NCBI GenBank assembly: GCA_024279735.1
Contig: JAJRRF010000087.1
Coordinates: forward strand, 1 to 26,519
DNA length: 26,519 nucleotides
Direction of reading: 5' to 3'
Origin: Alphaproteobacteria bacterium
GTDB lineage: Bacteria; Pseudomonadota; Alphaproteobacteria; Rhizobiales; JAJRRF01
Part shown: positions 428 to 18,110 of the stretch, in pieces
Position numbering within the stretch: position 1 is the first letter of the stretch
How the letters are laid out: the number at the start of each line of letters is the position of its first letter
Notes under the pieces: generated by a model
What the model was told of the DNA's origin: nothing
Database searches by the model: none
What the model saw: only the letters and a program-made list of their open reading frames with translations
Translations under genes and position numbers: made by a program

Positions 428-2008
428 ATGCCAGAAATTCAAAAAAATCTCGATGTTTTCAAGTCTGTTATCATTAAAGAAAATGAGATTGGCCTACTGA
501 TGGAAAATGGTCAGTTTAAAAAAATATTGCAGCCTGGAAAATACACGTTCTGGAGTTTGAGGGCAGAACGCAAGGTTCATATTTTAGATACATTTTCAAC
601 AGAACTCGCAGAGTTTTGGGCTGTGATCTTGCTCAAAAAGAGGCCTGCTGAGGCTGCGAAATTGTTTGAGGTGGTTGAGACAGGGGCAGACCAAATTGCC
701 TTGCTCTATCAGGATAACAAACCAGTCATGTTACTCAAGCCCTGGCAAAAAAAATATTTCTGGAAGATGCGCCACACGATTGATGTGGAATATATTTCCA
801 TCCAGACAGGTAAGGTTCTGTCTGAAGAGTACCGTACTGTCATGGAACAAATAAGACCTGAAAGCATGGTTGTCTCCCAGACAATAGGAGCTTCCCATAT
901 TGGATTGATGTATATTGATGACCAGTTTGACAGGGTGCTGTATCCTGGTGTCTATAGCTTTTGGAAGAATGAGGGGAAAATCTCATTTGAGCGTTATGAC
1001 TGTCTTAACAGAGCCAGCAATGGATTGCTTGAAAAACAGGCCAAGGAATTATTGGCTCATGCCCCAGACGAAGCCGACAAGCTGCTAGAAGTTGTCACTA
1101 CAAAAGAAAGCCAAGTGGCTGTTGTCTCTTGGGATGAGAAGCCCTTTTTAGTATTGAAACCGTGGCAGACCAAATATTATTTCAAAAAGCTTTCTAATGT
1201 CCATGTTGACTATATTACCATTGCCACAGGTCAAGAAGTGCCCAAGGAGTATCGCGCTGTTTTGGAAAAGCTCGATACAGGCCAGTTGGTACAGTCTTTG
1301 ACAATAGCGCATTTCCACACTGGTCTGATGTTTGTCGATGGCAAACTGGTGCGGGAACTGAAGCCCGGGGCCTATAGCTTTTGGCAAAATGAGGGGCAGG
1401 TTGCCTTCCAGATCATTGATTTGCGGCCACAGCAGCTTGAGGTTACAGCCCAGGAAATTTTGACCAAGGACAAGATTTCCCTGCGTGTCACCCTGTCTGC
1501 CTTTATGACGGTGCGGGATGCCTGCAAGACAGTAGAATCCTCTGTTGACCATAACGAGCATCTTTACCGCCTGGTTCAGTTTGCTGTGCGTGAGGCTGTG
1601 GGCAACCGTAGCCTGGATGAGGTCTTGGGCAGCCGCGAAAAGGTTGACAGCCAGATCGTGAATCATGTCCGTGAACATATGGGTGATATTGGTATCAGCT
1701 TGGAGGGGCTGGGCATTAAGGACATTATCCTACCTGGTGAGATGCGTGACATGCTCAACAAGGTGGTGATGGCCGAAAAGACTGCCCAGGCCAATTTGAT
1801 CCGCCGCCGCGAGGAAACAGCAGCAACTCGGTCCTTGCTCAATACTGCCAAGTTGATGGACGGCAGCCCGACCCTGATGCGGCTGAAGGAGCTGGAAACT
1901 CTGGAAAAGCTGACCGAAAAGGTTGGCCGCATCGACCTTCACGCAGGCGACAAGGGCGGCCTGGACGCGCTACTCTCTGGGTTGCTGAAAAGTGAGAAGA
2001 GTGAGTAG
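428..2008 (+). CDS. SPFH/band-7 (stomatin/flotillin-like) domain protein with triplicated N-terminal repeat region and C-terminal coiled coil. It has no predicted TM segment.
   Basis: The C-terminal about 180 aa (LRVTLSAFMTVRD...LGIKDIILPGEMRDMLNKVVMAEKTAQANLIRRREETAA...) matches the SPFH core. The N-terminal beta-hairpin motif PGxYxFW recurs at residues about 36, 173 and 313. Confidence 0.85.
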   Translation: MPEIQKNLDVFKSVIIKENEIGLLMENGQFKKILQPGKYTFWSLRAERKVHILDTFSTELAEFWAVILLKKRPAEAAKLFEVVETGADQIALLYQDNKPVMLLKPWQKKYFWKMRHTIDVEYISIQTGKVLSEEYRTVMEQIRPESMVVSQTIGASHIGLMYIDDQFDRVLYPGVYSFWKNEGKISFERYDCLNRASNGLLEKQAKELLAHAPDEADKLLEVVTTKESQVAVVSWDEKPFLVLKPWQTKYYFKKLSNVHVDYITIATGQEVPKEYRAVLEKLDTGQLVQSLTIAHFHTGLMFVDGKLVRELKPGAYSFWQNEGQVAFQIIDLRPQQLEVTAQEILTKDKISLRVTLSAFMTVRDACKTVESSVDHNEHLYRLVQFAVREAVGNRSLDEVLGSREKVDSQIVNHVREHMGDIGISLEGLGIKDIILPGEMRDMLNKVVMAEKTAQANLIRRREETAATRSLLNTAKLMDGSPTLMRLKELETLEKLTEKVGRIDLHAGDKGGLDALLSGLLKSEKSE

Positions 2009-2221: not shown

Positions 2222-3151
2222 ATGCAAACAATACTCTCAATCAAGAACCTGACCAAGACTTATGGTGAGGACTTTACTGCCCTGAACGATGTATCCCTTG
2301 AGATCAGGAAGGGCGAAATCTTTGCCCTGCTTGGGCCAAACGGGGCAGGTAAGACCACCTTAATCAGCACGATTTGCGGTATTGTCAATCCAAGTGGCGG
2401 CACTGTTACGGTGGATGGCCATGACATTATCACAAACTACCGCGCTGCCCGCGCCATGATTGGTCTTGTGCCGCAAGAACTCACGACTGACAGTTTTGAA
2501 ACGGTCTGGGATACGGTCAGTTTTACACGCGGCCTGTTTGGCAAAAAGCGTGATAACGCGCTGGTCAGCAAGATTTTAAAAGACCTCTCGCTGTATGACA
2601 AGAAAGACAACAAGATCATGACGCTGTCTGGCGGCATGAAACGCCGCGTCCTGATTGCCAAGGCCCTGTCGCATGAACCAAGGATATTATTCCTGGATGA
2701 GCCGACAGCCGGGGTGGATGTCGAGCTGCGCAAGGACATGTGGGCGGTGGTGCGCGGCTTGCAGCAAAGCGGGGTGACCATCATCCTGACCACCCACTAT
2801 ATTGAGGAAGCCGAGGAAATGGCTGACCGAGTGGGCATTATCAGCAAGGGCGAGATTATCCTGGTGGAGGACAAGGCCACCCTGATGGCCAAGCTGGGCA
2901 AGAAGCATTTGACGCTGGAACTGTGTGAAAAGCTGGAGACTGTTCCAGACACCCTGAAAGGCTATGACCTGTCCCTGTCAGACGACGGTTTTTCGCTGGT
3001 TTACCAATATGATAGCACTGGCAAGACGACTGGTATTACTGGCCTGCTCGACAAGCTAAAGGGCGAAAACATCGCCTTCCGCGACCTCAGCACAGGCCAA
3101 CGTTCCCTGGAAGATATTTTTGTGGGGCTGGTGAAGGGGGGAGAGGGATGA
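2222..3151 (+). CDS. yadG: ABC transporter ATP-binding protein, ABC-2 exporter type (YadG-like)
   Basis: Walker [12 protein letters not shown], signature LSGGMKRRV, Walker [13 protein letters not shown] and H-loop TTHY are all present. The overall layout matches E. coli YadG. Confidence 0.9.
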
Positions 3152-3435
3152 CAGGCCAGAAAACGGCTGAACTCATCAAGGTTGTGGATGAAATGACTGT
3201 TTTGCTGAAACAGCATAGTGAAGAAAACTGGGTAAGCTGGATGGGGCAGGTCTCTGCCCGCCTTAAAAATTCGGACTATTCAGGAATAGAAAAGCTGCTG
3301 GGGGCGTATGGCGGCATGGGGTCTTTTAATGATTTCGTGTTGATTGCGAAGCCCTCAGCCAATGAACAGCTCAATGTCTTGAGGCATAAGGCTTGGCAAC
3401 TGGCGACTGATATAAAGCGGGATTATACTGGTTGA
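3148..3435 (+). CDS. small hypothetical protein (95 aa) inserted between the ABC ATPase and permease genes
   Basis: ATGA start/stop overlap with yadG. A strong SD GGGGGAGAGGG lies 5-8 nt upstream. No recognisable domain. Confidence 0.55.
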
Positions 3436-4588: not shown

Positions 4589-5173
4589 ATGGCTGATTAT
4601 CCCCAATATAGCCTTTGTATTGAAGGTGTGGGATTGCCTTTGGAATGTGTGGAAGTCTTTCTGAAGGCAGAAAATGGGAAAGAAATAACAAGAAATGATA
4701 TGAGGGGGTTTCCTGAGGAGCTTGTGGGTTTTATGGATATCCTAAATGCCAAACTGTTAGACCCAAACTATGTAACCAATAAATTTTTTACAACATCTGT
4801 TTGGGATGGGGAAAAAACAATTGATCAGGGTTTTCATTATCGTTTGATGGGGCGATTTCGGGATATGAATATCGTGATTTTGCAAGCGTTTTTAGCTTGG
4901 GTTTGTCAGTTCAGTGTTAAGAATTCAATGTTGGGAACTATTTTTCAGGAAGGTAGTCTCTCTCCCACTTTAATAATGTCTATAGAGAAAAGGGTTGTCG
5001 AAATATCCTTTGTAGAGCATGAATATCCCCCTAAATTGGAAAAGAGTTGTTGTAATCCTGAGTTCTTGGCATCTGTGATTGATTGGGAGAAAGGGTGGGG
5101 TGAAGTGGAGGTGGGACTGACTGGGAAATCCCTATATTTGAATTACCTTTCTTGGGATGAGATAGTAAAATAA
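4589..5173 (+). CDS. hypothetical protein (194 aa), compositionally AT-richer than neighbours
   Basis: Strong SD AGGAGG 7 nt upstream, 9 nt after the yadH stop. No recognisable family. Confidence 0.6.
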   Translation: MADYPQYSLCIEGVGLPLECVEVFLKAENGKEITRNDMRGFPEELVGFMDILNAKLLDPNYVTNKFFTTSVWDGEKTIDQGFHYRLMGRFRDMNIVILQAFLAWVCQFSVKNSMLGTIFQEGSLSPTLIMSIEKRVVEISFVEHEYPPKLEKSCCNPEFLASVIDWEKGWGEVEVGLTGKSLYLNYLSWDEIVK

Positions 5174-17279: not shown

Positions 17280-18110
17280 ATGGAAATAGCATCAAGAAAA
17301 CCAAAAGTATTTATAGCTTCTTCATTAGAGGGAAGAAGTATTGTTGATGCTATTCACGTTAACATAGAACATGAATGTGAAGTCACTCCTTGGTATCATA
17401 GCTTTACACCTTCTAGTAATACCTTAGATGATTTGATTATATCATCTAGTGCTTCTGATTTTGCTTTGTTTGTGTTTCAACCCGATGATCTCACACTTAT
17501 AAGGAGTAAAGCAGAGCCAATGGTTAGAGATAATGTTCTATTTGAAATGGGAATATTTATCGGGACTCTTGGTCGGGAAAGGGTGTTTCTTCTGAAGCCG
17601 TCTCATGAAACATTATGCTTGCCAACTGACTTAGCTGGTTTGATTTATTTGGGATATGAAGCAAATAGAACTGATCAAAATTTAGAAGCAGCCACTAATC
17701 CCGCCTGCTCTAAAATAAAGAAATGTATAAAAGAAAGAGGGGCTTTGAATTTTGGAAATTTTTCAAAAACCAACAAGCAAAGTGTCAATTTTCCTGAATA
17801 TGAACTTGATGAAATAGATTATATTTTCTTGCAGAAATGTTCTGCTAGCCATACTTCCCATCCTGAAGGGTTAACCTTTGAAAGTCTTTCTTTTTCTATT
17901 AATAATAGGAAGAAAGAAGACGCAATAAGAAAATCAGCTCTTAAACTTCACAGAATGAAATGTATTGATCTTAGTATAGAAGTAGAAGACTTCGATATAA
18001 ATGATCCGCCAAGACAAGAGTATTACTATACCATCACAGAAATAGGGATTGATCTATTGTTAAAACACGATTTTTCAAAAAAGACTTTTGACGATGAGAT
18101 TCCATTCTGA
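17280..18110 (+). CDS. TIR-like domain protein (COG4271/PF10137-type 'predicted nucleotide-binding protein containing TIR-like domain') fused to a C-terminal winged-helix-like domain. It is AT-rich and likely horizontally acquired.
   Basis: Motifs KVFIASS, ALFVFQPDD, RDNVLFEMGIFIGTLGRERVFLLKP and PTDLAGLIYL. The first 120 nt are about 33% GC. Confidence 0.8.
   Translation: MEIASRKPKVFIASSLEGRSIVDAIHVNIEHECEVTPWYHSFTPSSNTLDDLIISSSASDFALFVFQPDDLTLIRSKAEPMVRDNVLFEMGIFIGTLGRERVFLLKPSHETLCLPTDLAGLIYLGYEANRTDQNLEAATNPACSKIKKCIKERGALNFGNFSKTNKQSVNFPEYELDEIDYIFLQKCSASHTSHPEGLTFESLSFSINNRKKEDAIRKSALKLHRMKCIDLSIEVEDFDINDPPRQEYYYTITEIGIDLLLKHDFSKKTFDDEIPF

Follow-up and report, generated by a model that had tools for sequence, protein, structure and literature searches.

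An anchorless SPFH protein with additional SPFH1-like units, and a candidate class of structured RNA upstream of its relatives

The SPFH gene and the parts of its product

We analysed a 26,519-nucleotide (nt) stretch of DNA from an uncultured alphaproteobacterium (contig JAJRRF010000087.1, assembly GCA_024279735.1), called the window below, and in it the gene of an SPFH (stomatin-like) protein. Its product is an SPFH protein of new architecture rather than a protein of a new kind: it has no membrane anchor and carries two full modules of 140 amino acids (aa) in front of its SPFH core. Most genes of its family lie directly behind a structured RNA of about 270 nt with strong covariation. The gene and the parts of the protein are located as follows.

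428 to 2008, + strand: SPFH (stomatin-like) protein gene, a complete open reading frame (ORF) of 526 aa with an ATG start
458 to 643, + strand: unit A1, aa 11-72; A-type SPFH1-like unit, strands at 11-54, helices at 62-79, PGKYTFW at residue 36
644 to 862, + strand: unit B1, aa 73-145; B-type unit with LLKPWQKKYFWK, five strands at 80-124, helix at 133-141
863 to 1063, + strand: unit A2, aa 146-212; SPFH1-like, nearer to the core SPFH1 than to A1, class C in the unit census
1064 to 1282, + strand: unit B2, aa 213-285; second B-type unit, 47% identical to B1
1283 to 1477, + strand: canonical core SPFH1, aa 286-350; five strands, PGAYSFW at residue 313, 93.4 bits with the C-type profile
1478 to 1735, + strand: SPFH2 alpha/beta subdomain, aa 351-436
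1736 to 1924, + strand: long helices at the C-terminus, aa 437-499; correspond to CC1/CC2 of SPFH cage proteins
1925 to 2005, + strand: C-terminal tail, aa 500-526; predicted local distance difference test score (pLDDT) 44-56, conserved motif VGRIDxHAG

The ORF is preceded by an in-frame upstream stop codon. Pfam Band_7 (PF01145) was detected at residues 298-463 only (104.1 bits against a cut-off of 23.6), in agreement with the SPFH/band-7 identity proposed in a first-pass annotation of this DNA. Sequence matches in the PDB are stomatin and QmcA, the stomatin chains aligning at 296-497 only. NCBIfam gave sub-threshold similarity to HflK (TIGR01933, 39.4 bits against a cut-off of 159.4) and an HflC equivalog score (TIGR01932) of 12.4 bits against 134.4, and PADLOC-DB matched the protein with no family at E<=1. 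The N-terminal 300 aa are not another known domain, as Pfam, NCBIfam and PADLOC give only weak matches to the N-terminal part of Band_7 there.

No transmembrane (TM) helix was found in the protein, the highest 19-residue Kyte-Doolittle mean being 1.12, and it has no signal-like hydrophobic N-terminus. We rejected the loss of a TM segment through a frameshift or a mis-called start: the 427 nt upstream hold, in any frame, only ORFs of at most 39 aa, none of them hydrophobic. No nfeD gene was found among the 20 neighbouring window proteins scanned, so that both absences named in the first-pass annotation were borne out. An N-terminal membrane anchor (TM helix, hairpin or lipidation) is described as a unifying feature of SPFH proteins (PMC13100048), and the window protein has none.

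An AlphaFold2 monomer model built on 99 family sequences (mean pLDDT 86, predicted TM-score 0.57) predicts every 140-aa module as two sub-units, each of five beta strands followed by a helix. Behind the modules the model places a further unit of five strands, the fifth, at 288-331, then the alpha/beta part SPFH2, the helices at 437-499 and a low-confidence tail, which possibly becomes ordered only within an oligomer. The test of family membership, an SPFH1 plus SPFH2 fold followed by long coiled-coil helices, identifies the window protein as an SPFH protein. The C-terminal helices are the most conserved part of the family, with invariant columns in the family alignment.

Repeat units and their origin

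As had been noted before, the motif PGxYxFW recurs at residues 36, 173 and 313, and exactly 140 aa separate the copies of two linker motifs (A[AD]KL[FL]EVV.T at 76 and 216; [LV]LKPWQ.KY[FY][WF]K at 102 and 242). The third linker motif proposed earlier does align at the 140-aa offset, with identities at V120, Y122, I123, I125, T127, G128, E134, Y135, R136, V138 and E140, but its written pattern fails at the first copy, which reads I-D-V in place of V.V.

Repeat comparison detected significant internal repeats. Residues 1-140 and 141-280 are 40% identical over 131 aa (blastp E=1.9e-31), with a Smith-Waterman score of 239 against 29+/-5 in 300 shuffles (z=39); residues 141-280 match 281-420 at 42% over 64 aa (E=5.9e-15), and 1-140 match 281-420 at 30% over 43 aa (E=1e-6). 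The C-terminal 106 aa match neither module. The protein has two full 140-aa modules, and the partial third copy belongs to the SPFH core, whose beginning it forms; only that copy continues into an SPFH core and coiled coil, as first described, judging from the extents of the Band_7 match, the stomatin alignments and the modelled helices. The DNA segments coding for the two modules are 53% identical to each other and, with the amino acid identity, agree with the earlier view of an old, diverged duplication.

The basic repeat is smaller than the module. In hhalign comparisons based on the family alignment, half A of the module matched half B at 94.8%, A matched the core SPFH1 at 97.9% and B matched it at 95.5% (E from 5e-8 to 3.5e-13), while A, B and SPFH1 all had no match to the SPFH2 plus coiled-coil part. 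The repeat is a five-stranded beta unit of about 65-70 aa homologous to SPFH1, and the 140-aa module is a higher-order repeat; the 140-aa period of the first-pass annotation is thus a real spacing and not the basic unit. Because halves A and B and the core SPFH1 are mutually homologous, the layout of the protein is A1-B1-A2-B2-SPFH1-SPFH2-coiled coil.

Unit A1 scores 62.5 bits with the A-type profile and 34.2 bits with the C-type (SPFH1-type) profile, and B1 scores 61.9 bits with the B-type profile. Unit A2 scores 34.2 bits with the C-type and 23.0 bits with the A-type profile. It aligns with the core SPFH1 at a score of 124 (46% over 59 aa) and with A1 at a score of 69 (43% over 30 aa); its greater closeness to the core fits an in-frame tandem duplication of a [B + SPFH1] block. 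The extra pair of units most likely arose by such a duplication, of about 140 aa, on an A-B-SPFH1 ground plan. That plan, of three units including the core's own, is found in 116 of the best 120 homologues. The N-terminal module had been described as triplicated, which does not hold, since the window protein adds one [B + SPFH1-like] block to an existing plan.

Relatives and unit counts

Almost all of the best 120 homologues are of about 381 aa with one module and cover about 70% of the query; their source names are 'slipin family protein' and 'HflC' or 'regulator of protease activity HflC'. The named members are mostly alphaproteobacterial, and the lineage is widespread in bacteria. A module-only profile run against 1.84 billion representatives detected 570 proteins at E<=1e-3; among these P0241 (1437 aa) was rejected as a low-complexity false positive. 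We found no description of multi-repeat SPFH proteins in the literature searched, which is in line with the earlier remark that they are poorly characterised.

The number of units was counted, with the core's own SPFH1 included, in 65 full-length representatives at 50% identity. Two units were found in 2 of them, three in 37, four in 9, five in 12, six in 2, seven in 2 and ten in a single protein (P0129, 894 aa). The five-unit architecture of the window protein recurs in other 50%-identity clusters, and its ABCBC order is also that of P0121, P0122 and P0125. Seven-unit forms, ABABCBC or ABCBCBC, are present on more than 15 contigs. Three-module relatives form two clusters of 724-744 aa. At the locus of one of them, P0013, whose gene starts just 127 nt from the contig end, a tRNA-Ser(gga) gene and a signal recognition particle RNA gene lie directly downstream (L003:2498-2705).

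The closest relative of the window protein is P0002, at 73% identity. The core is 87.5% identical between the two and the module about 45%, so the units evolve much faster than the core. Within the window gene the GC content at third codon positions (GC3) rises sharply from 0.40-0.52 in the repeat units (aa 1-300) to 0.62-0.72 in the SPFH core, and the P0002 gene likewise has lower GC3 in its 5' part; recombination or a different constraint could be the cause of this step and of the identity difference. The P0002 gene (L008:732-1997) has a GTG start and codes for a hydrophobic N-terminal helix (Kyte-Doolittle 2.69) before a single module. Among about 270 relatives only P0002 and P0152 have an N-terminal TM helix, in both directly before unit A. 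P0002 is anchored and the window protein is not, so that both versions coexist in one close clade.

Structured RNA and tRNA-like elements upstream of the relatives

A long gap always precedes the SPFH gene in the relatives, and a Rfam scan gave same-strand tRNA matches in these gaps. Aligned leaders had conserved non-coding blocks upstream of the SPFH genes, common to the relatives and the window. A scan of genome contigs with the window protein alone gave two Maricaulis loci; 80 further loci came from metagenomes, and the set including the earlier loci and the window comprises 81, in 55 of which GGAT[AG]CCG stands at a fixed distance of about -220.

Forty leaders were aligned with MAFFT, not fitted to any structure, and the RNAalifold consensus of this alignment has compensatory change in 19 of 25 pairs. 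For the 29 pairs of the ~270-nt RNA, in five helices, 92.2% of cells are paired against 34-42% with slid partners, and the covariation score is 0.494 against 0.08-0.115, a value reached by none of 500 shuffles; double changes occur in 23 pairs. Invariant GGAUACC and YCAAG blocks lie opposed between two covarying helices. A covariance model detected 68 matches in 370 kb with both strands searched, about 28 of them in loci outside the training set, and all 68 are on the strand of the SPFH gene and directly upstream of it. Examples of the RNA and of the tRNA-like elements, one or two in tandem, in front of it are the following.

L005:5668-5933: leader RNA in a relative
L012:174-437: leader RNA in a relative
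L023:1155-1418: leader RNA in a relative
L004:5384-5533: tRNA-like element(s)
L005:5517-5664: tRNA-like element(s)
L017:1000-1146: tRNA-like element(s)
L034:997-1143: tRNA-like element(s)

Of 59 RNA copies, 29 have a single tRNA-like element upstream according to ARAGORN and another 18 have two; the elements end a median of 1 nt before the ~270-nt RNA. At this one homologous position they have 27 different 'identities'; anticodon loops are aberrant in 21 of 65, and every element except one has a length of 69-77 nt, which is class I length even for those called Ser, Leu and SeC. The features of canonical tRNAs, namely a conserved identity and anticodon, a 7-nt loop and class II length for Ser, Leu and Sec, are lacking. 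The many identities, aberrant loops and uniform length indicate tRNA-shaped elements with an unconstrained anticodon, and we infer that they are probably processing signals for RNase P and RNase Z, defining the 5' end of the RNA, and not working tRNA genes.

Locus L057 carries tandem copies of a tRNA-like element plus structured RNA, at 432-820 and 1020-1410. The first copy has no following ORF, which hints at an RNA acting as a stand-alone molecule. At four loci of two-module type (L069, L081, L086 and L087) upstream tRNA-like genes are present and no RNA was detectable.

A known RNA was rejected as the identity of the leader. Rfam (15) has no family for the ~270-nt RNA in the relatives and matched only RF00005 tRNA on the tRNA-like parts; large surveys of bacterial structured RNAs make no mention of SPFH, band 7 or tRNA-like elements, and we found no description of the RNA in the literature searched. 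Bacterial Y-RNA-like YrlA is similar in that a larger structured RNA is adjoined by tRNA-shaped elements whose anticodon is not conserved, and it matched over the tRNA-like junction at 20.8 bits, below the cut-off of 69; the ~270-nt RNA differs in being linked to an SPFH gene, not to Rsr/Ro60. MALAT1-mascRNA is another case of a tRNA-like processing module next to a non-coding RNA. In comparison with such modules and with YrlA, cleavage at the tRNA-like elements described here is putative. We propose the tRNA-like element or elements, the ~270-nt covarying RNA and the SPFH gene as a candidate new RNA class.

Leader RNA in the window

Two extents of the leader RNA were delineated upstream of the window gene.

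216 to 348, + strand: probable divergent leader-RNA core; helix UGCGUGACAGG / CCUGUCACCCGU flanking the invariant GGAUACCG and CUUAAC blocks
109 to 378, + strand: full extent of the leader RNA according to model R1, a circular estimate as the window was in the training set; outer helices poorly formed

Model R2 was built without the window and L008. It matched the window core at nt 216-348 with 11.9 bits, E=0.0025 within nt 60-430 (the 371-nt leader), other matches scoring below 0 bits, and E=0.62 (11.8-11.9 bits) when 90 kb were searched. The L008 leader gave a full-length match with R2 (E=0.0013). We rejected strong membership of the window leader in the RNA class: the 46 bits from R1 come from a model trained on the window, and with R2 the core reaches no more than 11.8-11.9 bits. 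Folding this leader as a single sequence (z=-2.4) is uninformative, Rfam gave no match on window nt 1-460 at E<=10, and no tRNA-like element was found in the window. The sequence points to a probable divergent, low-GC and partly eroded member. Such a degenerate copy and the four loci without an RNA match suggest that the protein can exist without a well-formed RNA.

Proposed assembly and alternative explanations

The conserved SPFH2 and coiled-coil parts form a ring or dome in SPFH assemblies (PMC12624060). By analogy, we put about half of our confidence in a cytoplasmic, ring- or cage-forming SPFH protein whose wall would be lengthened by SPFH1-like units. The SPFH2 plus coiled-coil region would build a homo-oligomeric ring or dome, as in all solved SPFH assemblies; the chain of SPFH1-like units would hang from the dome rim and lengthen the wall, and the height of the dome would depend on the unit number, which ranges from 2 to 10 across the family. 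Since no anchor is present, the assembly would lie free in the cytoplasm or be held peripherally on the inner membrane face via its first unit. The TM helix directly before unit A in P0002 and P0152 places that end at the membrane, and from these relatives we argue that the first unit can face the membrane. In most relatives the SPFH gene would probably be transcribed behind one or two tRNA-like elements and the ~270-nt RNA, which may serve as a cis-regulatory leader or as a partner of the protein.

A peripheral-membrane scaffold is possible but clearly less probable than the lengthened cage. In such a scaffold the extra SPFH1-like units would bind the membrane by avidity, independently of a TM helix, under an ordinary stomatin-like dome. 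It is favoured by the hydrophobic and aromatic membrane-contact residues that SPFH1 bears in erlin and prohibitin (PMC12624060), by the aromatic turn, PGxYxFW or KPWQxKYxW, kept in every unit, and by the real TM helix before unit A in the two anchored relatives. The units have no hydrophobic stretch, however (Kyte-Doolittle maximum 1.1), the conserved aromatics lie in predicted strands and turns and may be plain core residues, and the ten units in a row of P0129 are hard to fit side by side on a membrane beneath one ring protomer.

We consider unlikely a vault-like ribonucleoprotein in which RNase P or RNase Z would free the RNA by cutting at the tRNA-like elements, after which the cage protein would bind or enclose it. 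The strict linkage of RNA and gene, the start of the RNA next to the tRNA-like element and the protein layout, which parallels the one found in the major vault protein (MVP), whose particle holds small RNAs, are consistent with it, and the L057 copy without an ORF is more easily explained by a stand-alone RNA than by a leader that acts purely in cis. Genetic linkage, however, is equally expected of a cis-regulatory 5' leader, we have no evidence here for RNA binding by an SPFH domain, and the window copy is degenerate and without tRNA-like elements, with no RNA match at the four two-module-type loci.

A non-cage adaptor, a monomer or small oligomer such as a protease modulator with repeated units that bind proteins, is similarly doubtful. 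It would agree with the source annotation as a regulator of protease activity and with the weak HflK similarity (39 bits). The HflK and HflC equivalog cut-offs are missed widely, however, no FtsH or other protease gene was linked at any locus examined, and the family is most conserved in its coiled-coil region, which drives ring formation in other SPFH proteins. The window protein also differs from HflK/HflC in having no TM helix and in not being encoded as a gene pair.

A two-module ORF produced by mis-assembly or gene decay is very improbable and largely refuted: although the protein is a singleton cluster from a single metagenome-assembled contig and its gene has a GC3 step from 0.44-0.46 in the modules to 0.62-0.72 in the core, the reading frame runs unbroken through 526 codons, modules that differ so much in their DNA could not be the product of collapse or duplication by an assembler, the ABCBC order recurs in independent clusters besides the seven-unit forms, and the P0002 gene shows the lower 5' GC3 too.

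In comparison with the prokaryotic stomatins and slipins (P. horikoshii PH1511, E. coli QmcA), the window protein lacks an anchor at its N-terminus, whether TM or hairpin, and has no NfeD partner in an operon, and the family has two (common form) or four (window protein) extra SPFH1-like units before the core. The only prokaryotic SPFH subfamilies described without a predicted TM region, SPFH8 and SPFH9, were called 'most likely soluble' (Hinderhofer et al. 2009, PMC2636767). They are like the window family in this respect, a comparison by description only, and that paper makes no mention of N-terminal repeats.

Recent structural work treats the vault as the lone exception to SPFH anchoring, with repeated beta domains that replace the anchor and a tall closed cage (PMC12624060, PMC13100048), and this substitution of a domain array for the anchor was described as unique to MVP (PMC13100048). 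MVP forms the eukaryotic vault and has bacterial and Asgard homologues with 5-9 repeat domains. The window protein fits its layout, an anchorless array of beta domains followed by SPFH and then a cap helix, but in the window family the stack is built from copies of SPFH1. At thresholds as loose as E<=0.1-1, neither Pfam Vault nor the MVP shoulder domains gave a match on the window protein, on seven relatives or on 13 modules searched in isolation. Homology to MVP by sequence was rejected, since Pfam Vault has no match and the module profile hits only HflK among PDB sequences.

The family departs from the anchoring generalisation as the vault does, with repeats traceable to SPFH1, and its natural variants of 2-10 units provide a handle on the evolution of cage wall height and closure, and possibly on the origin of the vault repeat array. 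An independent bacterial counterpart of the vault, derived from an ancestor of stomatin type, would combine an anchorless SPFH cage, a barrel of duplicated SPFH1 units (2 to 10 per chain) and the ~270-nt RNA, excised at the tRNA-like elements that flank it, in a cytoplasmic ribonucleoprotein container; we consider this improbable. If true, duplications of SPFH1 could also be the origin of the MVP repeat domains in eukaryotic vaults. The association of RNA and gene, together with a plausible processing mechanism, provides a first functional lead for this uncharacterised protein family.

Neighbouring genes

The window is ordinary chromosome, with an F0 ATP synthase operon that has two b subunits, and with rplS, leuC, panB and fabI; its LeuC shares 76-79% identity with proteins from Hyphomicrobiales. 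Flanked by a divergent gene upstream and by an ABC-2 transporter on the other side, the SPFH gene is on its own. A conserved partner gene was rejected, as the neighbourhoods of five relatives have no common protein-coding gene, and no NfeD was found in the neighbourhoods examined near P0013, P0017, P0019 and P0089. A defence role of the SPFH gene was rejected for lack of evidence: it has no PADLOC match and its neighbours are the ABC-2 transporter, an RND pump and housekeeping genes.

Within the ABC transporter locus, a DUF6966 protein of 95 aa (3148-3435, + strand) is encoded between the ATPase and permease genes and overlaps the ATPase stop codon. Directly after the ABC-2 permease gene lies an ORF of 194 aa (4589-5173, + strand) with a GC content of 0.39 and no Pfam or PADLOC match.

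The gene at 17280-18110 (+ strand) codes for a 276-aa protein with a CAP12/Pycsar-type TIR effector domain (Pfam 2e-27; PADLOC TIR effector 2e-44, PycTIR 5e-34), and no cyclase partner was seen. It sits in a low-GC islet (GC 0.34, GC3 0.24) between leuC and panB and is likely a horizontally acquired defence gene.
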